A stretch of 64,000 nucleotides of DNA, from the NCBI GenBank assembly GCA_002441305.1, contig DJVT01000005.1, positions 11,704 through 75,703 of the forward strand, given 5' to 3'. The notes under the pieces are model-generated. The model was not told the origin of the DNA. It saw only the letters and a program-made list of their open reading frames with translations, and did not search any database. Below, piece by piece: positions 1 to 48,345 of this stretch (within the stretch, counting starts at the first letter, position 1; each line of letters starts with the position of its first letter). A program made the position numbers and the translations under genes. Source of the stretch: Candidatus Omnitrophica bacterium UBA6249. Lineage in GTDB: Bacteria > Omnitrophota > Gorgyraeia > Gygaellales > Profunditerraquicolaceae.

Positions 1-811
1 TGAGCATCCTGACGGAATTAGCGATAAAAGAGAAATTTTCCGGAGATCTTCTTTTATAAGCGATCATTCTGTCGATTACCTCATCCATAATCTTAAGCCT
101 CTCCTTTGGTATAAACCCCGGAAAAACCTTGTCCCTCTGCGTCTGATCAATATTATTGGCGACGACCGGCTGAAAAATAACCCTTTCGATCTTTAATTCC
201 CTGCAAAGCTCTACGACATCCATAAGTTCTTCGATATTATCATCCATGATTGTGCATACGCTGACTATCTTGGGAAATTCGATCCCTCTATTGTCTTTCA
301 TGGAATTCAAAAGACGTATATTCTCGGTAATCCTGCCAAACACCTTCTCCCCTCTTACCTTGGCGAACGTCGCTTCAGAAGCAGCATCTATAGAAATACT
401 CAACCATTCCACTCCGGACTTAAAACATTTTTCAATATTCTCTTTATTCAGCATAACCCCATTGGTGACGATAATCGGAGACAGTCCCAGGTTTTTTGTA
501 AAAGCGACAAGCTCAAAAAGATCGCTTTTTATCAGTGGTTCCCCTCCTATAAATAAAACAGTTCTTGTCCCCAGATCCCTGGTCTCTTTTATTATTTTCC
601 TCATCGCCCGGCTGTCTATTTCTACTCTTTTCCCCTGTTTCTTCAGAAAGTCCAGCTGATCGTGCATACTGCACATCTTGCAACGAAGGTTGCAATCGAA
701 AGTAAAATTAATCTGGACCAGATCTGGAGGCACCAGGGGATAGTTTATTTTACGCGAAAGCCAGAAAAGAAAGTTTCTTCTTAACAAACTACACAGGTAT
801 TTATAGTTCAT
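1..811 (-). CDS. radical SAM domain protein (C-terminus runs off window edge)
   Basis: Absent from the ORF track because it is open-ended. My minus-strand translation from the ATG at 809-811 reads MNYKYLCSLLRRNF..INFTFDCNLRCKMCSMHDQ..VLFIGGEPLIKSD. It has the CX3CX2C cluster motif and the GGEPL motif. The start overlaps the upstream stop by 11 nt. Confidence 0.8.
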   Translation of the reverse strand, partial: MNYKYLCSLLRRNFLFWLSRKINYPLVPPDLVQINFTFDCNLRCKMCSMHDQLDFLKKQGKRVEIDSRAMRKIIKETRDLGTRTVLFIGGEPLIKSDLFELVAFTKNLGLSPIIVTNGVMLNKENIEKCFKSGVEWLSISIDAASEATFAKVRGEKVFGRITENIRLLNSMKDNRGIEFPKIVSVCTIMDDNIEELMDVVELCRELKIERVIFQPVVANNIDQTQRDKVFPGFIPKERLKIMDEVIDRMIAYKRRSPENFSFIANSVRML

Positions 812-2723
812 GATCGCAAAAACAGGGCAGCAGACAAGGCCATCTGCATCTTCCCGTCTCCTCTTTAGCGGATAAGGCTTCTTTACTCTGGAGAATTTCT
901 GCCAAGCTCCTGTTTTTTGCATCTCCGTAGGCAGAAAAACAGGTGGTACAAATACCTCTATTGGAAATCAATACGGTTTTATCCACAGAACCGCATACAA
1001 CATCACCGGAAACTAAGGAACCCCGGTAATATTTCTTCATCAAAGCAAGATTGGAAATTGAGTTTTTTATAAAAGCACCGTGTTCTTTCTTGAAAGCTAT
1101 CAACCGGTCCAAGGTTTCATCCAAGACTTCCAGTCTGTCTCCGGAAATCCAGAATTCCGACTTTTTCCTTTCCGCCATTCTCAAATTACTGGGAAGGAAA
1201 GCCTGGAACTGCAGGGAGTTAGCCCCCTGCCTCATTGCGTATTCGGCCAACCCCGGCAACTCTTCCAGATTTTGATTCAATACTATCGAAATAATATTGA
1301 AATTGACCCGGGGGAACTCTTTCTTTAACAAAGCAAGTTTGCCAACCGCCGTACTGGTCCTCTCCCAGGCAGAATCGGAATTCCTTATATAGTTATGCAC
1401 TGCGGGGCTTAAAGAATCAAGGGAAATGACCGGAGATACCGAACCGTCGATAAGATACGGTTTCAGCCTCTCTAAATGCTCCTCAACCAATAATCCGTTT
1501 GTCAAAAGACCAAGCTCTTTTATCCCGGACTTTCTTGTAAAATCGAATATCTCAAAAATGTCCTTTCTTGACAAAGGCTCTCCACCGGAAAGGGCTATTC
1601 CCTGGATTCCCAGCTTAACAGCTTCAGAAATAATTTTTTTTATGCTCGCCATATCGAGCCCTTTTTCCTTGGGAACAGTTTTCCAAATATCGCATATCCT
1701 GCAACTAAGATTGCAGGAATGGGTAATGTCCAGGATGAGCAGCCGGGGAACAGGCGCCTGCTTATCCGGCAAAGCGCATTGTTTAACAAACAGGTTTATC
1801 CTGAAAAATTCCCGTAAGTTGCCGAGAATATACAAGATTTTATGCATAATTAAACATAAATAGACGGAGATCCTCCGACCAGGGCCCTTGACCTCAAATT
1901 CTCCGATCAGCCTATTGCCCAGGCAATATGCGAATCTGGGTATTTTTATGATATTTACCAGGGTAGCAGACCAAAAAACAAATCTGCCCGTTTTTAACTC
2001 TTTTAACAAAGGGTGGTCTTCGTGCAGGAACTTCACCATAAAATTACCCCTGCCATAGGAATACGCCTGTTTCAAGAAACTTCCCAGCCGGGAATCCCTG
2101 TCATGGATAACTTTTGCCTGACGATTCCAAACAAATCTATAACCATCCTTGAAAATACGCCAGAAGAATTCCAGGTCTTCCCCTCCGGGAAGGGGGAACT
2201 TTTCGTTAAAACCGTAAGCATCGAAAATTTCCTTCCTCACTGCCGCGTTACAAGTAGGGAAAAAAATGGTTTCTTCCCTACCGCCGACCGAAGTCTCTAC
2301 GCTCCCGGTGCTTAAAAATTGGCTTACCAAGGCGAACGTCTTCCTCGTAGACGTCAAGGTATCCCCCCCTGAAGCGGCCAATCCGGGGTTAGCGTTTAAA
2401 CCCTCCAGTATCAAACTCACCCAATTGCTCTCAAGCCGGCAATCGTCATCCACAAAAGCTATAATACTGCCCTTGGCCTGCCTGGCTCCTGTATTACGGG
2501 CAACGGCCGGACCTTTACGGCATAAAGGGATATAAACGATGTTGGGAAAGACCGTGGAAAGGCTGCCGATCAGCATGCGAATACGCTCCTGGGGATAATC
2601 ATCCACTATGATTATCTCGATTTTTTCCTTGGGATAATCCTGCGCAAATATAGAACGGATGCATCTTTCAAGCTTATCCGCCCTGTTGAATGTGGGGATC
2701 ACTATAGAAACATCGAATGTCAT
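801..2723 (-). CDS. fusion protein: N-terminal family-2 glycosyltransferase + C-terminal radical SAM/SPASM-like domain
   Basis: N-terminus VSIVIPTFNR..IIIVDDYP..FVDDDC is a GT2 (GT-A, DXD) signature. Mid-protein ITHSCNLSCRICDIW (CX3CX2C) and LSGGEPL mark the radical SAM core. C-terminus CGSVDKTVLISNRGICTTC (CX13GX4C) plus CRWPCLLPCFC is Cys-rich and SPASM/twitch-like. Confidence 0.8.
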   Translation of the reverse strand: MTFDVSIVIPTFNRADKLERCIRSIFAQDYPKEKIEIIIVDDYPQERIRMLIGSLSTVFPNIVYIPLCRKGPAVARNTGARQAKGSIIAFVDDDCRLESNWVSLILEGLNANPGLAASGGDTLTSTRKTFALVSQFLSTGSVETSVGGREETIFFPTCNAAVRKEIFDAYGFNEKFPLPGGEDLEFFWRIFKDGYRFVWNRQAKVIHDRDSRLGSFLKQAYSYGRGNFMVKFLHEDHPLLKELKTGRFVFWSATLVNIIKIPRFAYCLGNRLIGEFEVKGPGRRISVYLCLIMHKILYILGNLREFFRINLFVKQCALPDKQAPVPRLLILDITHSCNLSCRICDIWKTVPKEKGLDMASIKKIISEAVKLGIQGIALSGGEPLSRKDIFEIFDFTRKSGIKELGLLTNGLLVEEHLERLKPYLIDGSVSPVISLDSLSPAVHNYIRNSDSAWERTSTAVGKLALLKKEFPRVNFNIISIVLNQNLEELPGLAEYAMRQGANSLQFQAFLPSNLRMAERKKSEFWISGDRLEVLDETLDRLIAFKKEHGAFIKNSISNLALMKKYYRGSLVSGDVVCGSVDKTVLISNRGICTTCFSAYGDAKNRSLAEILQSKEALSAKEETGRCRWPCLLPCFCDHEL

Positions 2724-5437
2724 CTACTGCTCTCCAAAAGTATCCTCCCGTTAAAATATGGATATTCCCCGGCGGACAACTTTTCCTTCCCCGCCTTCAG
2801 GCATTGCAACATCCTGCCTCTATGATAAAGATCGGAATTAAGCAGGTTCACCTGCCATTCTTCCCCCATGCCGTCTGGGGCAATCCCGATCTCCGGGAAA
2901 GCTTTTCCTGCGCAAGAATCCGGGGCCAAAATTGGGTATAAACCGCTTTTATTTATTCCGGCCGAAAAAATAACCTGCCAATCATCGTCTATATCTCCGG
3001 TAAAATCCGGCAAGACGCCTTCGTTCCCCGCGGAGGACCATTTATCATAAAATTCAGAAAGCATGATATTTGTCTGAAGGCGGTCTACTTCTAACCCCTC
3101 TTCTACTATCATGGCTATGGCGAGCTTTATGCTATGCTCATTTTCCAGGCTGATCCGCCATTCCTGCCTGAGCGGCAGGTGTATCCATTTAAAAGAAATA
3201 GCTGCCTCCCCTGCGCGGATTCCGGATTCACAAACTGCGCATGTAACGGAATCATGCCACTTGCCTCTTGAGCGTAAAGAAGTATACAATCCCAACCCTT
3301 TAGTTATCTCTCTTCCCATCCAATATATCCTGCAAGTATTGTTATCCAATTGAAACTCTAAGTTGCCGTTCTTAAGTACAGGTTTTGATTGAATAGGGAG
3401 ATATTTTTCTCTCTCACAGGACCTTAACCAGCCCATAAACAAATCGTGCCGTCCGGGAGAAACCCTGGTATTCGCTTCAGGGTCAATTTTGTATATACGC
3501 AGCTCCCTCGCCGTAGATAAAATGTCAGTATTAAAAAGCTTGAAAAAGTTATTCAGGGCCTTGCCGAAACCGGCAGCAACGCAAAGTTCCGGATTCGCAC
3601 TGTATAATCTGATTTCTCCCGAGGAAATGCATTTTTGAAGCACGTCCTCATACGAATCTGAAAACTCCGCCGGGAAAAAACCTTGCCCGGTGTCCGTACG
3701 ATAAGCATCAAAAACGGGAGAGAAATTGAACTTCATGCAAGACTGTTCGATATCTATCTCTTTGAAAACATCGATGCCTACCTTCCAGAAAATAGTGCCT
3801 TCAGGGCCGATCTCAAAACACCACTCCTGGACAACCGGCAAACCTTTCCATTCTCCTCTGGCAACCAATTGATTCCCATTTCTCTTCGCCAAAGTCCAAT
3901 GCGCAGTTCTCGAAGAATAAACATTCCCTGCCATGCTCATCTGCACGGTAAGATTACCGCCTTTGGTTAACGGGTAATCTTTATAATAAAACATACCCTG
4001 CCCCTGGGTAAACTTGAACCTCAGATTTCCGTCTGTTACTACAGACCCGTTTTGCAACTTATGCAAATACCCGTTCAAATCCGGAGTATTTATTATAATC
4101 CTGCCGGAAAAATACCCGAACTTGCTGCCCATATCCTCGGTATAATTTTGCAGCCATTTTCTATAATATTGTAAAACCCTGCAACTAGATAAATAATCCC
4201 CGTTGAATAATTTAAACCCGCTTGCTGGATGTATTTTTTCTTGCTCTATTACAAAAGATGGAACTTGCTCTCCAAGAGAAAATACCCCCGTACACGCTGA
4301 AAAGTTGTCATCATCCATAACAACATGCCAAGCGTTATCCTTACTGCCGATTTCCGGAAAAACCCCCTGTTTCTGCTCAGTACACCATTGACTGTATTCA
4401 TCGGTTAACATTGCATTCAAACATCCATCCTGGATCTGCAGGGGTTCCCGGGAATCCATGACTATCTCCAGCGATATCGCATTGTCCTCCGATATCCACG
4501 CCTTAAGCAGCTGAGAGCAGTTTAATTGATGGAATTTACCGGCGGCTTCAATCTGCCCTCCCTCGCTCACAGAAACTTCCCAGTCCGCCTGAAAAGAATT
4601 GTACCACCGGTCAGTAAGAAAAAACGAGGCGTAAACCCCGGAACCCGGGGTCAACAATCTGCCCCGCCAGTTAACAAAAAGGCGCCCGTTGTTGAAAACA
4701 AGCTGAATTTCCCCTTTTTCCGATATTCCAATCCCTTTTTTAGTACCGACTGTCTGGGTATACAACGCTACAACATCGTCGGTCAATCCGTCCTTGATCA
4801 GTCTCCCTTCTTTAAGCAAAAGCGTTCTCCCGCAGATTCTTTTAAGCATATTCATGTCATGGAGCACAAAAACAATGGTTTTCCCGGAGCTCTTCAGCTC
4901 AAATATCTTTTTTATGCATTTTTTCTGGAAGAATTCGTCGCCTACAGCCAAGGTGTCATCGATAACGAATATCTCCGGATCAACATGGACAGCTACGGAA
5001 AAAGCAAGCCGTACGAACATCCCCTGAGAATAACATTTTACCGGAGCATCCATGAATTTTCCGATTTCCGCGAAATCAACGACTTGCTGGAATTTTTCCT
5101 GCGCCTGGCTCGCGTTTAATCCAAAAAGCTCAAACTGCAAAAAAACATTTTCCCTCCCCGTGAGCTCCATTTGAAAACCCGCGCCTAACTCCAGCAGCCC
5201 GGATACGCTCCCTGAAACGCATATTTGACCACGGTCCGGCTTTAGCATGCCGGTAATCAGTTTTAAAACGGTGGATTTCCCGGAACCGTTTTCTCCGATT
5301 ATCCCCGTTATCTCCCCGCGCTCCAAGGCAAAACTGACTCCTCTCACGGCCCAAAAATTCTCCCAGGCAGTCTTTCCCGGAGAGGCAAACTTGATGCGAT
5401 ACATCTCCCAAACGTCTTTAAATTCGATTACGGGCAT
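2720..5437 (-). CDS. polysaccharide/O-antigen-type ABC exporter ATP-binding protein (Wzt/TagH-like) with ~650-aa C-terminal triple-repeat extension
   Basis: Walker A GENGSGKST, signature YSQGMFVRLAF, Walker B IFVIDDTLAVGD, H-loop VLHD. Residues ~240-905 form three related ~225-aa modules. 4-nt overlap with the downstream gene. Confidence 0.85.
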   Translation of the reverse strand: MPVIEFKDVWEMYRIKFASPGKTAWENFWAVRGVSFALERGEITGIIGENGSGKSTVLKLITGMLKPDRGQICVSGSVSGLLELGAGFQMELTGRENVFLQFELFGLNASQAQEKFQQVVDFAEIGKFMDAPVKCYSQGMFVRLAFSVAVHVDPEIFVIDDTLAVGDEFFQKKCIKKIFELKSSGKTIVFVLHDMNMLKRICGRTLLLKEGRLIKDGLTDDVVALYTQTVGTKKGIGISEKGEIQLVFNNGRLFVNWRGRLLTPGSGVYASFFLTDRWYNSFQADWEVSVSEGGQIEAAGKFHQLNCSQLLKAWISEDNAISLEIVMDSREPLQIQDGCLNAMLTDEYSQWCTEQKQGVFPEIGSKDNAWHVVMDDDNFSACTGVFSLGEQVPSFVIEQEKIHPASGFKLFNGDYLSSCRVLQYYRKWLQNYTEDMGSKFGYFSGRIIINTPDLNGYLHKLQNGSVVTDGNLRFKFTQGQGMFYYKDYPLTKGGNLTVQMSMAGNVYSSRTAHWTLAKRNGNQLVARGEWKGLPVVQEWCFEIGPEGTIFWKVGIDVFKEIDIEQSCMKFNFSPVFDAYRTDTGQGFFPAEFSDSYEDVLQKCISSGEIRLYSANPELCVAAGFGKALNNFFKLFNTDILSTARELRIYKIDPEANTRVSPGRHDLFMGWLRSCEREKYLPIQSKPVLKNGNLEFQLDNNTCRIYWMGREITKGLGLYTSLRSRGKWHDSVTCAVCESGIRAGEAAISFKWIHLPLRQEWRISLENEHSIKLAIAMIVEEGLEVDRLQTNIMLSEFYDKWSSAGNEGVLPDFTGDIDDDWQVIFSAGINKSGLYPILAPDSCAGKAFPEIGIAPDGMGEEWQVNLLNSDLYHRGRMLQCLKAGKEKLSAGEYPYFNGRILLESSR

Positions 5438-6238
5438 CTAAATCCTTTTTAACACTTCATTCTCGCATTTAACCGACACCAACATGCCGCAGAACAGGCT
5501 GAAAATGCTCCATAGCGCAGCCTTACACAACATTCCCGGATCCGGGGCCTTCGCCCAAAAAAATATGTCTTGATAGCAAACAACGAAAGAGGAAAACGGG
5601 TTGAGGTCAAAAACCCATCGGAATTTACCGGGGACCATGCCGATAGTGTAAAAAACGGGAGTCACCCAAAACCAAAACATTAGCACTGTCCCTATCAATT
5701 GCTCCAGGTCCCGGAAGAGGATATTGATTACACTAAACAATACAGCCATCCCGGAAGTAAAAACAAGCGTCAGCAGGAATAATGCCGGCAAATAAATAAA
5801 CAACGGGATAGTCTTGGGACTGCGTATAATAAAAATAGGGCACACTATGCACCAGCTGACCAGGAAATTCATAAAGTGCGACAACACTACCCCCAGAGGC
5901 AGGACCTCCTTGGGCAGGCCGAACTGATGCAAAACGCCTCTTTGCGTCAACAAGGAAGGAGACGCTTCGCACAGGGTTCCGGAAAAAAACATCCAAGGCA
6001 AAATTCCCGCAAGGACAAAAAAACCGAAATCTTTGATCTCCGCTTTAAACACCGCAGTAAAAACGAAAGTTATCGCCAGCATTATCAAAACCGGATTTAC
6101 CGCCACCCAGAATACCCCTAAGAAAGAACCGGCATAACCGGCCTTGAATTGCTTCAGCCCCATACCCCATAAGGCACGGCGAAAATTATAAATCTTTTTC
6201 AGCTTCTCTCCTGCAGATCCCAAAATATATTTATCCAT
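5438..6238 (-). CDS. ABC-2 type polysaccharide exporter permease (Wzm/TagG-like)
   Basis: 266 aa with about 6 hydrophobic helices. N-terminus ..RRALWGMGLKQFKAGYAGSFLGVFW is typical of the ABC-2 family. It abuts the ATPase gene with no gap. Confidence 0.8.
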   Translation of the reverse strand: MDKYILGSAGEKLKKIYNFRRALWGMGLKQFKAGYAGSFLGVFWVAVNPVLIMLAITFVFTAVFKAEIKDFGFFVLAGILPWMFFSGTLCEASPSLLTQRGVLHQFGLPKEVLPLGVVLSHFMNFLVSWCIVCPIFIIRSPKTIPLFIYLPALFLLTLVFTSGMAVLFSVINILFRDLEQLIGTVLMFWFWVTPVFYTIGMVPGKFRWVFDLNPFSSFVVCYQDIFFWAKAPDPGMLCKAALWSIFSLFCGMLVSVKCENEVLKRI

Positions 6239-6246: not shown

Positions 6247-7746
6247 TTAATCCTCTCGCCTGGAATTGCGCCCTTCGATGCTCTCGATAGAATCCCGGTA
6301 AAAAACAGCCTCTCCGGAAGAAGACCCTAAAAAAACCTCCAGCACTATCCTATCAGAATATTCCTTCTTTATCTTCCCCCGCAACTGACGCCCATCTTTA
6401 AAACGGACCACGGATACGTCCCGCCCACCGCCCTTATCCGGTAAGCTATAACTGCTTAATCTCGATATCTCGTTTTTTATAAAATCTTCGCCTGCCGAAA
6501 GCCGCCTGGCCTGTTCCATCGCCCTAACGGCCGACTGCGCATCCTGCATCTTCTCGCTTATCTTGGCCAAAGTCAAATAAGCCTGGCGGTAACGGGGATA
6601 ATCCCTGATTAATCCATCCACCACCTCCTTGGCCTTGCTTGTCTGACCAAGCCCGCTTAGAGCGTAAGCATAATTATTTAATATCTCCGCGTTGCCGGGA
6701 TCAAGCCGGAGCTTCTCCCGGCAAGCCTGCGCCTCTTTTTGATATTCAGCAAGTGCCGTATTTCGATCCGATAGATTGTCGTAAATGTCGGCAAGGCTGT
6801 TATGTAAACCTGGGTAGTCGTTTTCCAAGGCATTCAGTTTGTTGTACTCGGCAATCGCCTCTTTGAACATTTTATTGTCGCGATACAAACTGCCTAAACT
6901 GAAAACATAATCCGGGTTATCGGGATCAAGGCTTACGGCTTTTTTCATGTAGTTTATCGCTTCGGAGTACTGCTCAAGGTGCATCAAAGCCAATCCAAGA
7001 TCATTATAGGCAGAGGCATCTTTTTCATCGAGAGCCGCCGCCCTCCTGGCGTAAAACAACTCCTTCTTAAAATCACGCTTCCTGAAGTATATCTGACTTA
7101 ACAGCTTATATGCATAACTGAATTTTGGATCCAGGGAAAGCGCCTTATTCAAACTCAATTCGGAATTGATATAATCCCCTGAAGAAAAATAATAATATCC
7201 TAAAGTATACTCGGCGACCGCCGAATCGGGACAGATAACAAGCGCATTTTTTACCAGGGAAAGCGCCTTGGCGCTCTTTCCCGCCAGGAAAAATTCGGTG
7301 CCCTTATTTAAAGTGGAAACCATAAAAGCCTGGCAGCAATCTCGGGAGAGCTTTTCGATTTCTGCGTCTCCGGGGTTCCCCTCCAGAGCGGATTTCACCG
7401 TATTCAACGCCTCCTCATGCATCCCCGCCTGCGAGTACGTCTCCGCCAGAGATTTATATCCGTTCAGGGACGAGGGATTTATTGCCAGGGTCTTTTTGTA
7501 TTCGGCCGCCGCCTTAAGGTAATCCCCTTTATCCCTGTATGCTTCGGCAAGCCCAAAATGCCCCCTCCAGGAACGCGGATTTACCATCAAAGCCTTTTCA
7601 TAAGACTTAGCGGCCTCTTTTGGCAAAGAGCGTTCCAGGTAAAAATTACCTTGGTTGTAGAAAAATGCCTCCACCTTATCTTTGGCGATGTATAAAAAAA
7701 CGGCTACCACCGCCGCAAGGACGAGCAATTCAAGCGCTCTTCTCAT
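6247..7746 (-). CDS. membrane-anchored tetratricopeptide (TPR) repeat protein
   Basis: N-terminal TM LELLVLAAVVAVFLYIA, followed by more than 10 34-aa repeats with the A..Y..AL..NP pattern. Confidence 0.8.
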   Translation of the reverse strand: MRRALELLVLAAVVAVFLYIAKDKVEAFFYNQGNFYLERSLPKEAAKSYEKALMVNPRSWRGHFGLAEAYRDKGDYLKAAAEYKKTLAINPSSLNGYKSLAETYSQAGMHEEALNTVKSALEGNPGDAEIEKLSRDCCQAFMVSTLNKGTEFFLAGKSAKALSLVKNALVICPDSAVAEYTLGYYYFSSGDYINSELSLNKALSLDPKFSYAYKLLSQIYFRKRDFKKELFYARRAAALDEKDASAYNDLGLALMHLEQYSEAINYMKKAVSLDPDNPDYVFSLGSLYRDNKMFKEAIAEYNKLNALENDYPGLHNSLADIYDNLSDRNTALAEYQKEAQACREKLRLDPGNAEILNNYAYALSGLGQTSKAKEVVDGLIRDYPRYRQAYLTLAKISEKMQDAQSAVRAMEQARRLSAGEDFIKNEISRLSSYSLPDKGGGRDVSVVRFKDGRQLRGKIKKEYSDRIVLEVFLGSSSGEAVFYRDSIESIEGRNSRRED

Positions 7747-9043
7747 TACTCACAGCCTCCGCCGCATGCTTACCGTCCAGCATAGCGTCCTCCATAGACA
7801 TATAGCGCCAGCTTCCGTAACGGCCGCAGGAAATCACATCGTTCCCCGTCAAGAATTCCTTGATTACCGCTGTAGCTTCCGGATAATTTTCGTCATATAC
7901 GGGGTAGCCGTATTTTATATCATTGATATCCAAAACAGATATTTTATTATCTCTACCCAGAATCCCGCTGGAAACAAGATCTTTTATTACCCTCTTGGTT
8001 ATATTCTTCTTGTCTAAGGGCCTTCGCTTGGAATAGGCAACTTCCGCATATACGGCGCCTTTTCCCGCGGGAGCCGCGCTATGAGAAAAATTATGAAAGA
8101 ACCCCGCCCTAAAAAACGAGGTGCTCTTGTGTGGAAAATATATCCAGTGTCTTCCGGGTTGGCATTTTCTTTTTACCCCTATATTCAAATTAAATATGGA
8201 ATTCCAGCGTAATTTATTGAAGGCAACGGAAAGCCTTCTTGGCAAAGGATTGAGTATCTTCGCCAGTTCAGGCAAAGGTATGGTCGAAATCAATAGGTCA
8301 AACTTAATTTTGCCTTTGCCGCGGGCAACTAACTCTTTTCTTTGTAAGTCAACGGAATCAACTTTGCATTCCTTAAAAACGTTTTTCAATCCACGTTCAA
8401 AGGCCAAAGGAAGTTGCTCTATTCCCCCGGAGCGGGGATACCAAAACTCGGAATTGTAACCAAAGCGCCCTTTGTTTTTCCCGAAAAAACCTTTAATCAC
8501 CTCCGAAGGCTTAGGTTGAGGAATAAAATTACCGGTCCAGGTATAAATCATCTCTTCCAGGGGCACCGTCCAGAATTTATCGTTATAAGGAAGCATAAAA
8601 TGCCTGGCAATGCCTGCTCCGAAGGACTGGTCGATCCATTCCCTAAAGTTCAAAGCGCCTCTCTCGCCTGATTGAACCGCCTTCAGGAATCCCAAAAGGC
8701 ATTCCTGGCCTATGTTGTCGGGCAAGGAATACAAATTAGCCTGGAAGGGATATGGGCTAAAAATGCCGAAGTTGCTGATCCAGGCGCTTCTTTTGTGGGA
8801 AACAATATTCCCGTTCAGAAGCCTTTTTACCAAACGGAATATATATTTATCCCTGAAATGCAGCAAGTGGCCGTCGCAATCAAAGCTAAACCCTTTGAGC
8901 TTCCTGGATTTACACAACCCTCCGACTGCATGATCCTTCTCAAAGACCGAACAGTCCAGGGCTTTCTCCTGAAGATGCCAAGCTGCGCTCAACCCGGCTA
9001 ACCCGGCCCCTAAAATAACGACTTTTTTATTGTTCACGGACAT
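7730..9043 (-). CDS. FAD-dependent oxidoreductase, UDP-galactopyranose mutase-like
   Basis: Dinucleotide fold VVILGAGLAGLSAAWHL..FEKDHAVGG. The motifs FMLPYNDKFWTVP and FWYPRSGGIEQL resemble eukaryote-type UGM motifs as I remember them. It sits in a glycan operon. The specific activity is an inference. Confidence 0.55.
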   Translation of the reverse strand: MSVNNKKVVILGAGLAGLSAAWHLQEKALDCSVFEKDHAVGGLCKSRKLKGFSFDCDGHLLHFRDKYIFRLVKRLLNGNIVSHKRSAWISNFGIFSPYPFQANLYSLPDNIGQECLLGFLKAVQSGERGALNFREWIDQSFGAGIARHFMLPYNDKFWTVPLEEMIYTWTGNFIPQPKPSEVIKGFFGKNKGRFGYNSEFWYPRSGGIEQLPLAFERGLKNVFKECKVDSVDLQRKELVARGKGKIKFDLLISTIPLPELAKILNPLPRRLSVAFNKLRWNSIFNLNIGVKRKCQPGRHWIYFPHKSTSFFRAGFFHNFSHSAAPAGKGAVYAEVAYSKRRPLDKKNITKRVIKDLVSSGILGRDNKISVLDINDIKYGYPVYDENYPEATAVIKEFLTGNDVISCGRYGSWRYMSMEDAMLDGKHAAEAVSNEKSA

Positions 9044-10013
9044 CTATCTGTATTAATTTCCAAAATAAAATCACGCTGGAGAAAAACACCGTTATAATAA
9101 TAGCGATGGCTGCATAATTAGAAACCCTGGTCAACAGGACACCGGCGGAAGAAAAAATCAAACACAGCAGGAACATGAACAAAATCGTCTTTACGGGTCC
9201 CGCGGCATGAAGCCTTATCCGGAAAGCGATATGGTCATCGCTTTTCTTGAAAGGTATTTTTCTTTTCATAACCCTGAAAACGATAAGCAGCAATGTATCT
9301 ATAATGGGAAGCCATAAAATCAATACCGGGCTCAATAAAGCGAAGGCGTTCTCTTCGGAAGCATAACGCAGAATCAAAACAAAGGCGCAGATCAAAAAAC
9401 CCAGTAGATGGCTTCCCGAGTTTCCCAGATACGCCCTTGCCGGAGGCAGATTAAACACAAGGAAACCCAGGCTGGCTGCGCATAAAACCAAAAAACATAT
9501 CTGCATGTTGATATCCGGATTCAAAAAAGACACGGTTAACAAAGCGCTGCTGACGATCACGGCTACGCCCGCGGCCAGGGCATCCATTATATCCAGCAGG
9601 TTAAAAGCATTGGTAACTCCCAGGATCCAAAAAAAGGTGACCAAGGCGTTGCCCCAGAATCCGAGATACATTATATCGGTAGAAACCCCCAGGGAAATCA
9701 GGGCAACGGCACACGCCGATTGAAACAAAAACTTCTGGAGCACGGATAATTCCTTTAAATCATCTACCAGGCCGAATAAAAACACCAGAGATGAAACCCC
9801 GATAACCGGAATTATCCTGCCCGGGGGGACCCCAAATACATAGGCTCCGAAGAAATACCCCGCGGTAAAAGAAACAAAAATAGCAATCCCGCCCACCAAA
9901 GGGACCCCTTGCGCCTGCAGCAGTTTCCGCCTTAACGCCCATTTGCCCAAAACAAGGACGCTAAGCATGCTAAAGACCAAAACCCCGGAGAACACAATAA
10001 AATACCTGAGCAA
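9027..10013 (-). CDS. polyprenyl-phosphate sugar-1-phosphate transferase (glycosyltransferase family 4, WecA/MraY-like)
   Basis: About 10 TM helices. Motifs VDDLKELS and NAFNLLDIMDALAAG correspond to the canonical NAxNxxDGxDGLA, here with the Gly positions substituted. Confidence 0.8.
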   Translation of the reverse strand: MLRYFIVFSGVLVFSMLSVLVLGKWALRRKLLQAQGVPLVGGIAIFVSFTAGYFFGAYVFGVPPGRIIPVIGVSSLVFLFGLVDDLKELSVLQKFLFQSACAVALISLGVSTDIMYLGFWGNALVTFFWILGVTNAFNLLDIMDALAAGVAVIVSSALLTVSFLNPDINMQICFLVLCAASLGFLVFNLPPARAYLGNSGSHLLGFLICAFVLILRYASEENAFALLSPVLILWLPIIDTLLLIVFRVMKRKIPFKKSDDHIAFRIRLHAAGPVKTILFMFLLCLIFSSAGVLLTRVSNYAAIAIIITVFFSSVILFWKLIQIDVREQ

Positions 10014-10021: not shown

Positions 10022-11176
10022 CTAAGACAATAAATCTGAATAAAAACTGCTTGTTTCTTTCACCATCCGGTTAGGAGAGTACTCGTTGAAATCCAAAGAG
10101 GCGTTAGCCGATGCGGCGATACTTTTTCTCAGGGAACCGCTGGCTAAAAGTTTCTCCAGAGGCTCCATAAAAGCGGTGATATCCCCCGCTTTAACCAAGT
10201 ACCCCGTTTCGCCATTTTTGACGATATCCCTTACCCCTCCCGTATCGGAAACGACTACCGGGACAAAAGAAGCTATCGCTTCAAGTACGGCAATCGGCAG
10301 CCCTTCCCACAATGAGGTTAATACAAAAACATCAAAAGAAGAAATAACCTCCGGTATATCCCTTCTCCACCCGGTAAGGATAACCTGCCGCTCCAAACCA
10401 AGTTTTTTTATCAGAGAACGCAGGCTCTCCCTCATTTCTCCGTCTCCCACCAAAACAAATTTTGCTCCCGGGAAAACCTTTACGGCAACTGCGGCCAATC
10501 TTATAAAATCCAGCGGCGCCTTCTGAGGCTTAAAACAGGCAATCATGCCGATAACCAGAGTTGAAGGCGGGATGCCGTATATTCTTCTCAACGAATACCC
10601 CGCACGCCGAACGGGAAATTCCGAAGAATCCAAAGCATAACGTATTATGCGATATTTCCCGGGAGTGCCGATTCTTTTTTGAAGAGCTGTCTCCCTGTCA
10701 TGCCGGGAAACCACTATTATCCCATCGGACCAAAAAGCACAGATTGTCTCCAGGAACCGGTAAAGAAGATGTGCCGGAAAGAACTGGTGATCGTGAAAAC
10801 TCCAGCCGTGCACAGTATGCAAAATCGCCTTAACCCCGGTAATCCTGGCTGCTGCCCTTCCTAGAATGCCGGCTTTAGAGCTATGCGTATGCACTATATC
10901 TATCTTATTATGCTTTATAAACCGGCATATAAAAACCAGGGCGAGGAGGTCCTCTACCGGCCGAACAGGCCTTTCCAAGGGCTTGCAGCGTATCAGAGTT
11001 AACCCGGGAATCCGTGCTGCCTCGTCAATCAACAACCCTTCTGCAGCGGTGATGAGAAACGGGTTGAATCTGTCTTTATCCAGCCCGCGGATTAATTCCA
11101 ATAGCTGCTTCTGGGCCCCTCCCAGCTCCAATTTCGTAATCACATACAGGATATTAACTTTCCCGCGAGGTGGCAT
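10022..11176 (-). CDS. glycosyltransferase, GT-B fold (family 1/GT4)
   Basis: N-terminus ILYVITKLELGGAQ. The C-terminal EGLPIAVLEAIASFVPVVVSDTGG motif is the E(x7)E signature of retaining GT4 enzymes. Confidence 0.8.
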   Translation of the reverse strand: MPPRGKVNILYVITKLELGGAQKQLLELIRGLDKDRFNPFLITAAEGLLIDEAARIPGLTLIRCKPLERPVRPVEDLLALVFICRFIKHNKIDIVHTHSSKAGILGRAAARITGVKAILHTVHGWSFHDHQFFPAHLLYRFLETICAFWSDGIIVVSRHDRETALQKRIGTPGKYRIIRYALDSSEFPVRRAGYSLRRIYGIPPSTLVIGMIACFKPQKAPLDFIRLAAVAVKVFPGAKFVLVGDGEMRESLRSLIKKLGLERQVILTGWRRDIPEVISSFDVFVLTSLWEGLPIAVLEAIASFVPVVVSDTGGVRDIVKNGETGYLVKAGDITAFMEPLEKLLASGSLRKSIAASANASLDFNEYSPNRMVKETSSFYSDLLS

Positions 11177-11878: not shown

Positions 11879-12865
11879 TCAATTGCCTTTACCGGTGTTT
11901 TTCCTGAACAAATCAAGGAATTTATCTTCGTACTCCTTATAAACATTCCATTTATCCAATTCGACTTTCAATTCCCCTGCCTTGGAAATATCGCGCCGGC
12001 TTTCTTCGAAAAGCCTGTCTATCTTTTCCTTAACCGAAACGGGGAGTTTGGTGAGCTGGCTCAGGGTTTTCTTTATCAATTCTACCTCTTCATCCCCTAT
12101 GGGGGAAGACTGGCCGGAAGAACCCAGCTTGAGATAGTCAAGCAACTTACTGATTTCGCTTTCCATTGCCTTTGCTTCGTCTTTTAACGGCTGCACATTA
12201 ATCTGCATACCGAGAACCTTGCCTATCCCGGTAAGTACCGCCGCCGAGGCCTTAGGATTCTCGATTTGAATTGTATAAAGCGGAATCTCCCCCAAAAGAC
12301 AGAAGCCTTTCAACCCTGTTTTTTTAGCCATTCCCAGGAATAATCCGTTCATTCCGCTAATCTGCCCTTCTTGCAAAGGGAGGAATCCTTGTTTATTCAA
12401 AGAATCCTTGGTCTTATTATCGGTGGCGGCAAACCACACCCGAGACTCCTGCGTATGGTCTGTGGCCTGCGGCATAGAAGCAAAACTTGCTACGGCTTCC
12501 ACGCCCAGGCTCTTTGCTAAATCTATGATCACCTTGGCATAATTATCCGCCCTGGACAAATCCGGCTGGGCGTTACTCAGAAAAATTACCAGATCGTTTT
12601 TCCCCTTTTGTTTTTTTGAAGAGGGATTCTTCCAAAAATAAAATTTCCCTTGCGGCAAAAGGGGAGTTTCGAGAATCCCGGCTTGCACCAGGCTCCCGGT
12701 CAGATAAAAGAAACTCTCCGGCGATATCTCCGCGAACTCCTGCGCCTTAAGCTCTTCTATCAGATAGGAGGCTGCCTTAAAAGCCACTTCCCCCATGCCT
12801 GGCCAGGCGGTAATGAGGTAGGGTTTTTTAAGTCTGGGCTTTTTGGATATTTTTAGCATTTCCAT
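11879..12865 (-). CDS. PAC2 (proteasome assembly chaperone 2-like) family protein
   Basis: N-terminus KKPYLITAWPGMGEVA and GMNGLFLG resemble the PAC2/DUF75 family. The C-terminal ~90 aa are predicted coiled coil. Confidence 0.55.
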   Translation of the reverse strand: MEMLKISKKPRLKKPYLITAWPGMGEVAFKAASYLIEELKAQEFAEISPESFFYLTGSLVQAGILETPLLPQGKFYFWKNPSSKKQKGKNDLVIFLSNAQPDLSRADNYAKVIIDLAKSLGVEAVASFASMPQATDHTQESRVWFAATDNKTKDSLNKQGFLPLQEGQISGMNGLFLGMAKKTGLKGFCLLGEIPLYTIQIENPKASAAVLTGIGKVLGMQINVQPLKDEAKAMESEISKLLDYLKLGSSGQSSPIGDEEVELIKKTLSQLTKLPVSVKEKIDRLFEESRRDISKAGELKVELDKWNVYKEYEDKFLDLFRKNTGKGN

Positions 12866-14010: not shown

Positions 14011-14638
14011 TTAAAGGGCACAATGCGCATTTAGGATTCTGCTTATGGCAATAGTCCTTCCCCAGCTTGACCAAAAGCGCATGGTATTCATTGAACATTC
14101 TTACACTTTTCTTAAGCCCACGCATAAAAATATCCTGTGCCTGGCCGTAAGTGCAGTCTTTACCGACAATGCCGTGCCTGGAAAAAATCCTCTTGGTATA
14201 GGCATCTATCACGAATACCGGCTTATCCAATGCGTAAAGCAAAATGGAATCCGCCGTTTCTTCCCCGATCCCGTTAACCTGTAAAAGCTCCTTGCGCAGG
14301 ACATGCAAGGAACGGGCGTGCATCCGCTTTATGTCCGATGAATAGCGGTCTCGGAAGAAACGCAAAAAATTCTTAAGCCTGGATGCCTTTATATTGTAAT
14401 ACCCGGCGCTTTTGATTAACGCGCCAAGCCTAACCGGGGATAAAGCCAAAATCTTGCCCGGGTTAAGGCACTTCTTGTTCTTTAGCGCCGCAACCGCTTT
14501 TTCCACATTACCCCAGTTGGTATTCTGGGTAAGTATAGCTCCTACGATCACCTCAAATTTACTCTCCGCCGGCCACCATTTTTGCGGTCCGAAAGCGGAA
14601 TAAAGTCGTGAAAAAATACTCTCCAGGCGGCATTTCAT
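14000..14638 (-). CDS. endonuclease III-related HhH-GPD base-excision repair protein
   Basis: HhH motif VNGIGEETADSILLYAL, catalytic-region VIDAYTKRI, and the C-terminal 4Fe-4S loop CHKQNPKCALCPL. Confidence 0.75.
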   Translation of the reverse strand: MKCRLESIFSRLYSAFGPQKWWPAESKFEVIVGAILTQNTNWGNVEKAVAALKNKKCLNPGKILALSPVRLGALIKSAGYYNIKASRLKNFLRFFRDRYSSDIKRMHARSLHVLRKELLQVNGIGEETADSILLYALDKPVFVIDAYTKRIFSRHGIVGKDCTYGQAQDIFMRGLKKSVRMFNEYHALLVKLGKDYCHKQNPKCALCPLNGR

Positions 14639-16590
14639 TCTTTAAGCCTAAGAGGATTTATTCCGTAATAGGCAAAAATCGTATAGGCGGTACCGGATAC
14701 GGAACCGGTATGCTTCCCCTTAGGCGTCATCCAGCCATGCCCGGTATCTACATAAGCCTGGCTTGCGTAAGGCAAACATCCCTCCCCCTGCCCGGAAGGA
14801 GAGGGGCTGGAGATGATCATTTTACTGAGCTGCCCCAGGTAGTTATCCGCTTTTTCCCGGTACGCAGCCGCCTTCTCGGCCTGACCTTTCTTGAGATAAT
14901 ACTCCTCCATAATCTTAAAGGAAACGATCATCTGGGCTGTCCATTCGCTGGAAACCACTCCCCCGCGGGAAACGTGAAGCTGGGGCGCAAAATCAAAACC
15001 CTGGACTTTCACCACTTGCCCACCGGGGCGGGTAAAGCTGACTTCAACCTTGCAGTTCTCTTCGGCGAACTCCATGATCTTGTCGGGATCCATGCCTATG
15101 GATTGTAATTTTTCCGGTCCGATGGCCGCGATAGACCAAGCGTACGTATCTGTAGCAATAGTGGAATCCCCCTTGCCGCGTTTAACCGGCAAGTCCTGCC
15201 TGTCATAGGTATGCCGCAGAAGCCATCCTAATGTCTTTTCCGCTGCCTGCTCGTATGCATCCGACTTGGTTACTCTGGCGAGCATCTTATATAAAGCATA
15301 TGCATCCAAATGGTGCTCCGTGGAATACCAGGTCATCTGCGGTCCCCCCCGGATACCGTTATCAAGGTCGGAATTCTGAAGAGCGATAATATTCCTGGCG
15401 ATCTCTTCGGCTATATGCAAATACTGCCTGTCCCCGGTTATCTGGGTATACTGGACTACGGAAAGACCTAACCAGATATTCGGTCCGCAGTGCAGGACGA
15501 ACTCCGCGGGGGCGCCGTCATTTACATAATATGCGTTCAGGAACCAGCCGTTCTCGCGCTTGGCTTCTTTGGCAAAAAAATCCAGCATCTTTCTGGCGCT
15601 GGGATAATCCGAAAAATCACTGAATACCTGTATTAACAATGCCTCGTCATAAAGAAAGGCCCAGCTGGCGATATCCTTATCTCCCTCGAAGCTCATTACT
15701 AATCCGGTATGCGGATTTTGACGCACCTTAAACCACTGGTACATCTTCTCCAGATTAGCTTTTTCCAAAATTGCTTTTTTAGCCTCCAGGCGGACGGCTT
15801 CCTGCTGCGCGGCTTTTTCACTGGCCCTTAAAGCGTCCAGCCGCGCCTGCAGAAGGTCCCTTTCCTGGGCGAGCTTTACGATAATAGCATTTAATTCCTC
15901 TGTTTTGTCCGGCGGCAAAACCTGATGCCCCGCTTCCCCTGCCGCTTCAATTTTTTTTACAGAAACAGCCTCTATCTGCGCAGTCAAAGATTGAATCCGG
16001 GTCTGCAGCTCCTTGCGCTCCCCGGCTATTTGGCTTAACTGTTGTTTTACCGATTTAGATTCCTGCAGCACCCTGACCAGCTCTTCGACAAGCATGTTGT
16101 TCCGGCGGGTCAACTGTATATTCAGATAGGAACCTATGCCCAAAGACAAAACCAGAATCCCTACCGATACCAGGACAAAGGGAAGAAAAAGTTTCCTTGC
16201 CCAGGCGTAGCGGATAAGCATGCGGTTTTGGCCGGGATTGATCTTCTCGTAATCCAACCCCAGTAAATAACGCTTGCTTGACCCGCCTGCGTCTTTTGTC
16301 CAGGCCAGAGAAACAGAAGCGCAGACAGTTTTTCCTCTTAAGGGAATATCTATTTCTATGGCAAGTTTTACCCTGCCCTCCCGCACGAGCTTAATCAATT
16401 CCGGGGAAGGATCGTTAACGGCAAGGCATATCCCGCCATGCCCGATATTGTTGGTAAAACCCTGGATCCACGGAGAAAGAGGCTGCTTGCTGTCCAGGCT
16501 TTCCAAACGGAACTGCACCGGGAAAACAGTATCCAAACGTATATATCTTCTGCGTTCTCTTTTTGCGTTCCTGTCTCGTTTTTCTGTCAT
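14635..16590 (-). CDS. PilZ domain - TM - coiled coil - C-terminal (alpha/alpha)-barrel-like domain protein
   Basis: PilZ motifs RRYIR (RxxxR) and NNIGHGG (D/NxSxxG-like). TM LFLPFVLVSVGILVLSLGIGSYL. About 150 aa are heptad-rich. The C-terminal ~350 aa are rich in W/Y/D/H helix-hairpin-like repeats. The fold assignment is tentative. Confidence 0.6.
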   Translation of the reverse strand: MTEKRDRNAKRERRRYIRLDTVFPVQFRLESLDSKQPLSPWIQGFTNNIGHGGICLAVNDPSPELIKLVREGRVKLAIEIDIPLRGKTVCASVSLAWTKDAGGSSKRYLLGLDYEKINPGQNRMLIRYAWARKLFLPFVLVSVGILVLSLGIGSYLNIQLTRRNNMLVEELVRVLQESKSVKQQLSQIAGERKELQTRIQSLTAQIEAVSVKKIEAAGEAGHQVLPPDKTEELNAIIVKLAQERDLLQARLDALRASEKAAQQEAVRLEAKKAILEKANLEKMYQWFKVRQNPHTGLVMSFEGDKDIASWAFLYDEALLIQVFSDFSDYPSARKMLDFFAKEAKRENGWFLNAYYVNDGAPAEFVLHCGPNIWLGLSVVQYTQITGDRQYLHIAEEIARNIIALQNSDLDNGIRGGPQMTWYSTEHHLDAYALYKMLARVTKSDAYEQAAEKTLGWLLRHTYDRQDLPVKRGKGDSTIATDTYAWSIAAIGPEKLQSIGMDPDKIMEFAEENCKVEVSFTRPGGQVVKVQGFDFAPQLHVSRGGVVSSEWTAQMIVSFKIMEEYYLKKGQAEKAAAYREKADNYLGQLSKMIISSPSPSGQGEGCLPYASQAYVDTGHGWMTPKGKHTGSVSGTAYTIFAYYGINPLRLKE

Positions 16591-20098: not shown

Positions 20099-21871
20099 TT
20101 ATTCCGTCTCCCTGGCAAATGGCTTGTAATCAAATCCGCTCCAGCTCACCCCAAGATGACTGCAAAACTCAAGGACGTTAAGTCTCACCCCATGCACCAG
20201 AACCGACATCAAACCCAGGATAATATTCAGGACGTGACCGCAGATTAATATCAGGACCGCTGCCCCTAGAGTAAAGAAATTCCCTTTTTCCACGACCCCG
20301 GCCGCCATGTTATTAAAGGCGTCGGCGATCGCCACGGTCGCCAGGCCTACCGCAAAAAGCCTGATATAAGAAACTACGTCGGTAAAATTATTGACCAGGC
20401 TCAAGGCGATCGTCCCCAGCCCCGAAGCGGCAGCCTTAAAGATATTCTTCTGCGGGCTGGCAAAAAACAACACCAGCGCCAGGCCGGCAATGATCAATCC
20501 CCCTCCGCAAGAGGGAAAACCCCCCCCCAGGATCAAGCTGTCGGCAAGAAAGAACGCCGCCCAGATAATGCAAATCCAGCCGGCATCCGCCAGAGCGGAC
20601 AAAGAGGGAAGTTTCACAATCCCCTTCCAGGCGTGGGCCAGGGTCAAATGCAGGGCCCCCAGGAAAAAACAAAATTTCTGGATAAAAACGGTATCGGTCA
20701 AAACCGGCAAAAGTGGCTTGATCCCCAGGCTCAACAGCCAGGATTGGCCGAAAAATGTCCCCGTCAACAACCCCCATATCATAGCGCAAGAACTCAGGAT
20801 GTAAAAGAGAAAAAATGCGCTTTTGTCCTTGATCCTGCTGCCGAACTTGCGATGGACCCAGAGATTGAGCAGGAAATAAACCAATCCGTACCCGGCGTCT
20901 CCGATCAGGATCCCGAAAAAAACACTGAAGAAAATGATAAAAAGTAAGCTGATATCCAGCTCGTGGTAACCCGGAACGAGCTCCAGCAATTTAAGCAGGG
21001 GTTTGATAAAAGCTACCCAGCGGGGGTTACGCAAAAGTGTCGGGACCTCATCTTTCTCGTCCGGGTCCAGGGTAAAAATCCCCCACCCCTTTTTCTTGAC
21101 GCAGGAAACGAACTCCGCCTCTTTTTCCGACGGCAAATACCCTTTCAGGTACACTAATTCTCCGGCCTCGGCGGCTCCGTTCAGTGTTTCGAAAAAATTC
21201 TTTTTATAAATCAGCGACCTTCTCCCCTCGAGCACAGATTTACGGTAAGCGCCATAATCCTCCAGTTGTTTCCGGATCGTCTCCATCGCCCCGGCGTCTT
21301 CGGACAGCCTCCGGCGCATCTGCGACAGGGAGAGTCTCGGCGGATCCAATTCCTTGAAGCCTGAAGGGGCATCCTGCCGGCTGACCAGAATGCAATTCTC
21401 CACCGCTCCCTCCGAAAAAACTATTTTTACGGCCGTTTCCGGGCCAATCCCCTTCAAACTTTCCCGCGGGACCTGACAAAACTTCACGTATACGCCGGCA
21501 TCCGCCAGGCGCTTTATTTCCTGCGGGTCAAAATCCCCCCAGGGAGACCAACGGTCAATCGCGGATTTTAAGGTAACGGAATATTCCTTAAGCTGATCCA
21601 GCCTCTTCTGGAGATCCACGACATGGTGGCAAAATGACAATAGATCATCTTTTAAAGGCTCTTCGCCCTGCGGTGTTTTCTGCCAGGAGGACAAGATCAA
21701 AACCGCCTGGTCCGTCACGGCGATATTTTCACCAAGGGAAGATACCTCCTCCCCGGCGGGAGGCCTTTGGTGCTCGACATGCAATAACCCCAAAGAGGCC
21801 AGCTCCGACAAAGAATCCCGGGCATGATTCTTTTGCAAAAAAAGAAAAGCTTTTTTCATCGGAACAATCAT
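20099..21871 (-). CDS. atpI: V-type ATPase subunit I (a-subunit)
   Basis: 590 aa. Soluble N-terminal half, C-terminal multi-TM half containing SYIRLFAVGLA (the conserved Arg helix). Confidence 0.85.
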   Translation of the reverse strand: MIVPMKKAFLFLQKNHARDSLSELASLGLLHVEHQRPPAGEEVSSLGENIAVTDQAVLILSSWQKTPQGEEPLKDDLLSFCHHVVDLQKRLDQLKEYSVTLKSAIDRWSPWGDFDPQEIKRLADAGVYVKFCQVPRESLKGIGPETAVKIVFSEGAVENCILVSRQDAPSGFKELDPPRLSLSQMRRRLSEDAGAMETIRKQLEDYGAYRKSVLEGRRSLIYKKNFFETLNGAAEAGELVYLKGYLPSEKEAEFVSCVKKKGWGIFTLDPDEKDEVPTLLRNPRWVAFIKPLLKLLELVPGYHELDISLLFIIFFSVFFGILIGDAGYGLVYFLLNLWVHRKFGSRIKDKSAFFLFYILSSCAMIWGLLTGTFFGQSWLLSLGIKPLLPVLTDTVFIQKFCFFLGALHLTLAHAWKGIVKLPSLSALADAGWICIIWAAFFLADSLILGGGFPSCGGGLIIAGLALVLFFASPQKNIFKAAASGLGTIALSLVNNFTDVVSYIRLFAVGLATVAIADAFNNMAAGVVEKGNFFTLGAAVLILICGHVLNIILGLMSVLVHGVRLNVLEFCSHLGVSWSGFDYKPFARETE

Positions 21872-48137: not shown

Positions 48138-48217
48138 TTTACACAGGTGTTCACTTTTTTTGAAGGAACCTTTTGCGGTAATTGGAATTAACAGATTGTA
48201 CACATATTGTATAAATC

Positions 48218-48337: not shown

Positions 48338-48345
48338 TAAAAAAC

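Follow-up and report, generated by a model that had tools for sequence, protein, structure and literature searches.

A Wzt-type ABC ATPase of Omnitrophota with a triplicated C-terminal module of predicted β-supersandwich fold and a remodeled ATP site

What do three large repeated units do behind the ATPase of a glycan exporter? The question is raised by a gene in a 64,000-nucleotide stretch of DNA from Candidatus Omnitrophica bacterium UBA6249 (contig DJVT01000005.1; hereafter the window), which encodes a Wzt-type ATP-binding cassette (ABC) ATPase. We found that its nucleotide-binding domain (NBD) is followed by three copies of a module of about 220 amino acids (aa), and we propose, with moderate confidence, that these copies form an array of glycan-recognition modules on a Wzm/Wzt exporter, the functional counterpart of the Wzt carbohydrate-binding domain (CBD). 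The gene and the parts of its product are laid out as follows:

2720..5437, minus strand: complete gene of the Wzt-type ABC ATPase, 905 aa plus stop codon (open reading frame list)
4724..5437, minus strand: NBD, residues 1-238 (PF00005, E 1.2e-19; Aquifex Wzt 8dku/6amx, E 4e-65)
5018..5032, minus strand: ABC signature motif YSQGM, residues 136-140, with Gln138 (translation)
4955..4969, minus strand: Walker B motif FVIDD, residues 157-161 (translation)
4049..4723, minus strand: unit R1, residues 239-463 ('type 1'), with a short linker helix at its end (454-463)
3374..4048, minus strand: unit R2, residues 464-688 (internal)
2723..3373, minus strand: unit R3, residues 689-905 ('type 3', terminal; translation and model)

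The original prediction described a Wzt-type ATPase with a triplicated C-terminal module, and the open reading frame, the Pfam match, the solved relatives and the repeat statistics all bear this out. Its span of 2720-4720 covers the 3′ two-thirds of the 905-aa frame, and the full frame is 2720..5437. Residues 32-163 match PF00005 (ABC_tran, E 1.2e-19), and the top NCBIfam matches of the NBD are the TagH and galactan Wzt/RfbE models, all under their equivalog cut-offs. Among solved structures, the nearest is Wzt of Aquifex aeolicus, a subunit of its O-antigen transporter (8dku/6amx/7k2t, E about 4e-65); next come TarH and TagH (E 1e-43 to 1e-51) and mycobacterial RfbE. The hallmarks of Wzt and TagH are present (a YSxGM signature, a LAVGD D-loop and a C-terminal hinge helix), together with a Walker A motif GENGSGKS at residues 48-55, the D-loop AVGD at 164-167, the H-loop His193 and a hinge-helix Tyr226. 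By its NBD homology, its Wzm partner and its locus, the protein is a Wzt. It occurs in identical form on contigs of three independent assemblies (ENA, NCBI and Logan), one of them 195 kb long, and is therefore not an assembly artifact.

To compare the units pairwise, the extension was cut at residues 239, 464 and 689. BLASTP aligned R1, R2 and R3 with each other at E values of 1e-12 to 1e-18, with about 23% identity over 188-218 aa. Unit-against-unit Smith-Waterman scores were 118-169, compared to a shuffle mean of about 31 (standard deviation about 5), yielding z = 18-27; the NBD aligned against a unit gave z below 0. The internal repeat signal is significant by both measures, and a hidden Markov model (HMM) built from the three units identified three full-length copies, at matching positions, in about 60 homologues. 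The unit starts first read by eye, near residues 240, 465 and 690, were correct, as was the shared opening motif. The supposed closing motif (EYSQW...GVFP and its counterparts) does exist and is conserved, but its place is the middle of the unit: it occupies residues 108-126 of about 220, and another 95-102 residues come after it. No DNA-level repeat at unit spacing was found in the gene, which rules out a recent DNA duplication as the origin of the units; the triplication is therefore ancient.

Among orthologues, the mean pairwise identity is 0.47 for R1, 0.41 for R2 and 0.48 for R3, versus 0.67 for the NBD, while the number of positions with at least 90% conservation is 38, 24 and 47, respectively. 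Judged by this conservation, all three units are under purifying selection, R3 being the most constrained and R2 the least conserved of the three. R3 carries the motifs LGLYTSLRS, VDRLQTNIMLS, DIDDDW and NSDLYHRGRxLQ. In an alignment of R3 units only (A3), its charged residues R36, R100, D132, D133, D183 and R189 are invariant, and D43 and D99 are nearly invariant. The window protein is the most divergent of its group, with at most 49% identity over its full length to the other aligned family members. Its W736C, in R3, replaces a Trp that is nearly invariant in all unit types, and further departures from positions with at least 90% conservation are W311L in R1 and Y576F and I634L in R2.

We then asked what kind of domain the unit is. 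Searched as a whole protein, residues 240-905 have no Pfam match at E values up to 1, and the extension matches no NCBIfam model. A scan of 47 individual units against Pfam at E values up to 5 returned no family and no recurrent weak match, and these empty scans rule out that the repeats are a common annotated domain. The Wzt_C family (PF14524) was likewise absent from the whole protein at E up to 1 and from the 47 units at E up to 5, and a unit profile had no match above noise among PDB sequences (E 0.19). For R3, an AlphaFold2 model based on the 47-sequence unit alignment (A2) has a predicted local distance difference test score (pLDDT) of 94.6 and a predicted template modeling score (pTM) of 0.91; it is almost entirely β, 18 strands against two short helices. 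In the full-length model (pLDDT 85.7, pTM 0.54), the R3-like strand pattern recurs three times after the NBD.

A Foldseek comparison of the R3 model to the PDB retrieved galactose-mutarotase-like β-supersandwich domains (E 4e-6 to 1e-3, query-normalized template modeling (TM) scores of 0.5-0.68). The best match is the GH36-like FpGalNase (E 4e-6, TM 0.68), with galactose mutarotase at TM 0.62, the YidC P1 domain at TM 0.58, and GH65 kojibiose phosphorylase, GH63 YgjK, GH97 enzymes, LacZ, rhamnogalacturonan and heparan lyases and MdoD also among the matches. The modeled unit has the two-layer topology of about 18-20 strands that defines the β-supersandwich, and we assign its predicted fold to the galactose-mutarotase-like β-supersandwich. 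It lacks the catalytic His/Glu dyad of the mutarotase, as the columns conserved in every unit type include neither His nor Glu. The module was initially pictured as an enlarged Wzt carbohydrate-binding module (CBM), a picture that the predicted fold contradicts, β-supersandwich rather than jelly-roll. That it differs from the single jelly-roll CBM of about 150 aa was correct: PF14524 is absent here, but most of 80 close relatives with a length of about 400 aa contain it.

How widespread is this module? A word-indexed search with the extension as query returned 71 proteins, of which about 60 are about 905 aa long with the layout of the window protein; the named proteins among them are labeled Candidatus Omnitrophica/Omnitrophota. 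An exhaustive profile search over 1.84 billion cluster representatives (clustered at 50% identity) yielded 679 proteins at a cut-off of E 1e-3, of which 574 also pass 1e-10. By these searches, the unit is a previously unannotated domain family of at least 679 clusters, mostly from Omnitrophota. Among the best 148 of the 679, counting full units only, the NBD is followed by one unit in 5 proteins, two units in 19, three in 44, four in 12 and five in 10. Subtype HMMs confidently assign the NBD-adjacent unit to type 1 and the last unit to type 3, with 0-3 more divergent units between them. A scan of one genome per GTDB species, seeded from the R3-only alignment, found 33 loci, nearly all in Omnitrophota metagenome-assembled genomes; some were automatically labeled Planctomycetia and one Elusimicrobiota. 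The triplicated module is thus unusual compared to characterized systems, as had been suggested, but within Omnitrophota it is the norm, with hundreds of sequences and one to five copies.

The module is not confined to ABC ATPases. One to four units form the C-terminal part of GT-C (PMT_2/ArnT-like) glycosyltransferases (P0071, P0089, P0132, P0170, P0194 and P0209), and the terminal type 3 unit also closes these fusions. Units stand before or between radical S-adenosylmethionine (radical-SAM)/SPASM domains; P0102 consists of an NBD, five units and a radical-SAM/SPASM domain, and P0188 of an NBD, two units and a radical-SAM/SPASM domain. In P0212, a unit follows a sulfatase domain that opens with a hydrophobic signal or anchor. 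The locus of the P0071 fusion holds a small GT2 gene overlapping the P0071 start, a Wzx-like gene, DegT aminotransferases, several glycosyltransferases and at least five radical-SAM genes; GT-C enzymes usually have such a small GT2 as their polyprenyl-phosphate-sugar synthase partner. By analogy with ArnT, PglB and Emb, the C-terminal domains of the GT-C fusions would be extracytoplasmic. The module is used by cytoplasmic proteins (NBD and radical-SAM) and very probably also by extracytoplasmic ones, namely the signal-anchored sulfatase and, by this analogy, the GT-C C-terminal domains. Found on NBD, GT-C, radical-SAM and sulfatase proteins, it is thus portable and would serve both sides of the membrane. 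Some relatives are very long: P0124 (2244 aa) has an NBD, 7-8 matched unit stretches and about 490 aa without an assigned domain, P0142 (1403 aa) interleaves units with a B12-binding radical-SAM domain and a radical-SAM/SPASM domain, and P0184 has 1825 aa.

Comparing units across these fusions separates two sets of residues. Thr26, Ser44, Gln72, Asn181, Ser/Thr182 and Arg189 (unit numbering), together with several Trp and Tyr residues, are kept whatever the fusion partner. The DIDDDW acidic cluster and several Arg residues are confined to the Wzt-fused terminal unit and are not kept in the GT-C-fused terminal units.

We now turn to the locus around the gene, whose members in the window are:

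5438..6238, minus strand: Wzm ABC-2 permease (PF01061; best match to the galactan Wzm/RfbD NCBIfam model)
6247-7746, minus strand: tetratricopeptide repeat (TPR) protein (Pfam/NCBIfam)
7730-9043, minus strand: flavin adenine dinucleotide (FAD) oxidoreductase (Pfam/NCBIfam)
9027-10013, minus strand: WecA/MraY-family polyprenyl-phosphate sugar-phosphate transferase (Pfam/NCBIfam)
10022-11176, minus strand: group-1 (GT4) glycosyltransferase (Pfam/NCBIfam)
801..2723, minus strand: GT2 glycosyltransferase-radical-SAM fusion, 640 aa (PF00535, PF04055)
2..727, minus strand: second radical-SAM/SPASM paralogue, start only, continuing past the window edge (tblastn, profile)

The wzm gene directly abuts the wzt start codon, and it is syntenic in most of the related loci with enough upstream sequence. 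The start of the GT2-radical-SAM gene overlaps the wzt stop by 4 nt, and in 23 of the 33 related loci this gene is found downstream of wzt, either next to it or with one gene between. The second radical-SAM paralogue is complete on the 195-kb ENA contig (327 aa); it shares 30% identity (tblastn) with the radical-SAM half of 801..2723, and its best match is a generic radical-SAM/SPASM profile. Across the 33 loci the conserved order is GT4, WecA-like transferase, FAD oxidoreductase, (TPR protein), Wzm, Wzt, GT2-radical-SAM and radical-SAM paralogues, and the related Omnitrophota loci usually continue with two to six further radical-SAM paralogues in a row. The Wzt-fused radical-SAM domains of other genomes are 23-26% identical to the radical-SAM half in the window, and the locus paralogues are 22-34% identical to it. 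None of the radical-SAM proteins reaches a curated family cut-off. Immediately past the glycan locus, at 11879-12865 on the minus strand, lies a PAC2-family protein (PF09754, a proteasome-assembly-chaperone-like family).

Together, these observations favor, moderately, the reading of the array as glycan-recognition modules. Its NBD is a Wzt with Wzm adjacent, and a WecA-like initiating transferase, a GT4 and a GT2 are encoded in a locus of conserved order. The extension occupies the exact place of the Wzt_C CBMs in the nearest relatives. The hinge-helix Tyr226, with at least 90% conservation in the family, aligns with Aquifex Tyr233, which contacts the O antigen (PMC9445017); its conservation also supports the reading. 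So do the match of the predicted fold to carbohydrate-associated β-supersandwich domains, the presence of the module on other enzymes of glycan loci (GT-C, radical-SAM and sulfatase), the residues kept independently of the partner, which are polar and aromatic, and the purifying selection on all three units. A glycan-binding role is inferred here from position, fold, fusion partners and locus.

On this basis, the gene product would serve as ATPase subunit in a Wzm/Wzt-type exporter whose substrate is a polyprenol-linked glycan. Most likely, the array would capture the finished, possibly radical-SAM-modified, lipid-linked glycan on the cytoplasmic face and present it to the transporter. A division of labor among the units can be proposed: the terminal type 3 unit would be the main recognition site, the first (type 1) unit would be specialized for docking against the NBD and its hinge helix, and the internal units would add valency or reach. 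The module may also be the substrate-binding part of the other locus enzymes that carry it, the GT-C transferases, the radical-SAM/SPASM enzymes and the sulfatase.

Several points weigh against this proposal. The R3 of the window deviates at four positions with at least 90% conservation (G700N, W736C, G749F and F809L), and the full-length pTM of 0.54 leaves the arrangement of the domains uncertain. β-Supersandwich domains also occur in non-glycan settings, such as YidC P1, and can be catalytic, as in mutarotase and MdoD-type proteins. In addition, the periplasmic placement of the module in the GT-C fusions draws on family knowledge; crude hydropathy counts of transmembrane segments were too noisy.

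The ATP site of the protein is also altered. As first noticed in the sequence, Walker B reads FVIDD, with Asp in place of the catalytic Glu; the substitution is real, and alignment to the Aquifex IIDE motif places Asp161 opposite the Glu. Both D160 and D161 are invariant in a 55-sequence family alignment. Among 156 module-bearing NBDs, Walker B ends in Asp-Asp in 139 and in Asp-Glu in 17. The substitution covaries with the signature motif, where Gln138 stands in the position of a Ser or Ala in canonical Wzt: 126 of the 139 Asp-Asp proteins have YSQGM, and 14 of the 17 Asp-Glu proteins have YSSGM or YSAGM. Position 162 covaries with Walker B as well (Thr/Ile with Asp-Asp, Val with Asp-Glu). The Walker A Lys, the H-loop His and the D-loop Asp are conserved across the module-bearing NBDs. 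We considered Glu168, after the D-loop, as a relocated catalytic carboxylate, and ruled it out because it is equally common in Asp-Asp and Asp-Glu proteins.

For comparison we took the 120 best NBD homologues outside the earlier family sets. The 109 without a detectable module all have Asp-Glu (Asp-Asp, 0 of 109); 80 of them are about 400 aa long, mostly with Wzt_C, and 29 are short. The 11 Asp-Asp sequences are all short and apparently truncated. Six keep part of the module, and the other five are 172-243 aa long with NBDs 64-69% identical to that of the window. P0225 (404 aa, from an ENA contig) combines a 69% identical NBD with a Wzt_C jelly-roll and Asp-Glu, yet has YSQGM, and by its sequence may represent a transitional form in evolution between canonical Wzt proteins and the clade that bears the module.

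In heterodimeric exporters, the hallmarks most often seen at degenerate sites are a Walker B Glu-to-Asp substitution and deviations in the signature motif, and such sites hydrolyze ATP far more slowly than the transport cycle (PMC7756269). Both hallmarks are present in this NBD, and a canonical partner site is not evident in the window or locus. No second Wzt-like NBD gene that could supply a heterodimer partner was found in the window or in the conserved locus; therefore, both ATP sites of a homodimer should carry the change. Because the substitution is fixed and covarying and the catalytic apparatus is otherwise intact, the site is likely remodeled but still functional, probably slow rather than dead. 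The intact Walker A Lys, H-loop His and D-loop Asp beside this covariation also fit the proposed exporter with a recognition array. Asp for the catalytic Glu, with a co-evolved Gln, at both sites of the presumed Wzt dimer would lead to slow hydrolysis and long-lived ATP-bound states.

A bolder combination of these elements, which we regard as improbable though worth stating, is an Omnitrophota device for controlling the quality and length of exported glycans, in which a variable reader array, its terminal unit reading a radical-SAM-installed modification, would be coupled to a homodimeric motor with two degenerate sites (Asp-Asp plus YSQGM) that acts as a slow, ATP-occluding gate or timer instead of a fast pump. 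If true, this would be the first natural homodimeric ABC exporter operating on two degenerate sites.

The best-surviving alternative, although an unlikely one, is that the array is a rigid cytoplasmic spacer or ruler whose one to five units set the chain length or organize the GT2-radical-SAM and radical-SAM enzymes around the transporter. The ruled distance could, for example, be the one between the membrane-bound polymerizing enzymes and a terminal unit that binds the cap or docks an enzyme. A variable copy number with a fixed type 1 head, a fixed type 3 tail and a divergent, expandable middle fits a ruler; the linkers between the units are short, the internal R2 is the least conserved unit, and in some genomes radical-SAM enzymes are joined to the array end. 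There is also a precedent, since coiled-coil rulers are known and ABC-dependent O-antigen pathways include ruler-type control of chain length (WbdD; PMC3482155). However, the internal units keep the polar and aromatic core residues of the family and are therefore not mere spacers, and the low full-length pTM and the disordered R2-R3 linker (residues 679-683, low pLDDT) speak against a rigid rod. A ruler would be compatible with glycan recognition by the same array rather than exclusive of it.

A second alternative, which we consider very unlikely, is that at least one unit, above all R3 with its acidic DIDDDW motif and its NSD...R motif, works as an enzyme (epimerase, hydrolase, lyase or transferase) and trims or modifies the glycan before export. 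The supersandwich is catalytic in galactose mutarotase, MdoD and polysaccharide lyases are among the Foldseek matches, and R3 is rich in family-conserved charged residues. However, with about 220 aa the unit has the length of accessory supersandwich domains and not that of catalytic ones, the units have no conserved His or Glu in common, and the R3-specific acidic and Arg residues are not retained in the GT-C-fused terminal units; tandem repetition and fusion to diverse enzymes are typical of binding modules. Finally, an array that binds no glycan and instead gates the degenerate ATPase through protein contacts or a small-molecule signal would account for the co-occurrence of the module and the Asp-Asp/YSQGM remodeling in one clade, and contacts between canonical CBDs and the NBD do influence ATPase activity (PMC9445017), but this idea has little to recommend it when the module is also found apart from any NBD, on GT-C, sulfatase and radical-SAM proteins, and when 17 module-bearing NBDs keep Asp-Glu, so that the module does not require a degenerate site.

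The rest of the window places the glycan locus on the chromosome, in a stretch that spans the replication-origin region:

45564-46658, minus strand: dnaN
46797-48203, minus strand: dnaA
48809-50338, plus strand: yidC

The minus strand carries dnaA, dnaN, gyrB and gyrA as far as 48.2 kb; yidC, parA and parB follow on the plus strand, starting at 48.8 kb. Transcription in this region (45564-52264) is divergent, the cumulative GC-skew minimum falls there, and the GC content dips to about 0.39 at 46-52 kb; the intergenic segment 48204-48808 is likely oriC. The YidC of the window contains a periplasmic P1 domain (PF14849) of the same β-supersandwich fold class as the Wzt units, with no relationship between them at the sequence level. 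Elsewhere, 14635-16590 (minus strand) is a 651-aa open reading frame with no Pfam match at E up to 1e-5, and 20099-21871 (minus strand) encodes a protein of 590 aa that weakly matches V-type ATPase subunit I (PF01496), which points to a V/A-type ATPase operon in the vicinity.

Models of ABC-dependent glycan export currently rest on a few Proteobacteria and on Aquifex, where reading the chain-terminating cap falls to one jelly-roll CBM. Here, a phylum of ultra-small, largely uncultured bacteria appears to have placed a different modular reader at the CBM position, in variable copy number and in common with GT-C, radical-SAM and sulfatase enzymes, and the cluster of radical-SAM paralogues hints at unusual glycan chemistry in Omnitrophota. 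The domain family, with its at least 679 clusters, could enter domain databases, and its members are candidate CBMs to assess. The fixed Asp-for-Glu substitution with its co-evolving signature, in a presumably homodimeric protein, is a natural experiment on how much site degeneracy an ABC exporter tolerates. In the searchable literature we found no description of this architecture (one relevant survey of Wzt CBMs lay outside that scope), and nothing specific on supersandwich domains on ABC transporters or on radical-SAM glycan loci of Omnitrophota.

How, then, does the protein compare to known systems? It probably acts in broadly the same way as characterized Wzt proteins, while its recognition hardware and ATP-site chemistry differ. 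With the CBM-bearing Wzt of E. coli O9a, Raoultella terrigena/Klebsiella O12 and Aquifex aeolicus (PF14524), it shares a homologous NBD, the hinge-helix Tyr, a Wzm neighbor, a polyprenol-linked glycan locus and a C-terminal appendage at the position of the cap-binding CBD. In those proteins, however, the appendage is one jelly-roll of about 150 aa and the NBD has the catalytic Glu and YSSGM; here PF14524 is replaced by three tandem copies (one to five in the family) of a predicted β-supersandwich of about 220 aa, and the NBD has Asp and YSQGM. The unit resembles the accessory β-supersandwich domains (the N-terminal domains of FpGalNase, GH65, GH63 and GH97 enzymes, LacZ domain 5, the lyase and MdoD domains, YidC P1) in overall fold, but it has only 7-12% sequence identity to these structures and no profile-level match, and the catalytic His and Glu of galactose mutarotase are not conserved in it. 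Its occurrence as a tandem array on an ABC ATPase has no counterpart among the solved-structure matches or the papers found.

Mycobacterial Emb and AftD are GT-C glycosyltransferases with C-terminal carbohydrate-binding domains. The GT-C (PMT_2) members of the present family, with their one to four units, parallel such acceptor-binding CBMs, although the module family differs and the window protein is an ABC ATPase, not a GT-C enzyme. At the ATP site, the nearest parallel is with heterodimeric type I exporters (TAP1, ABCC NBD1 and TM287/288), which likewise combine a Walker B Glu-to-Asp substitution with a signature deviation. In these exporters, one site is degenerate and a canonical site drives transport, whereas the single Wzt gene of the window implies that both sites are changed, and its H-loop, D-loop and Walker A remain canonical.

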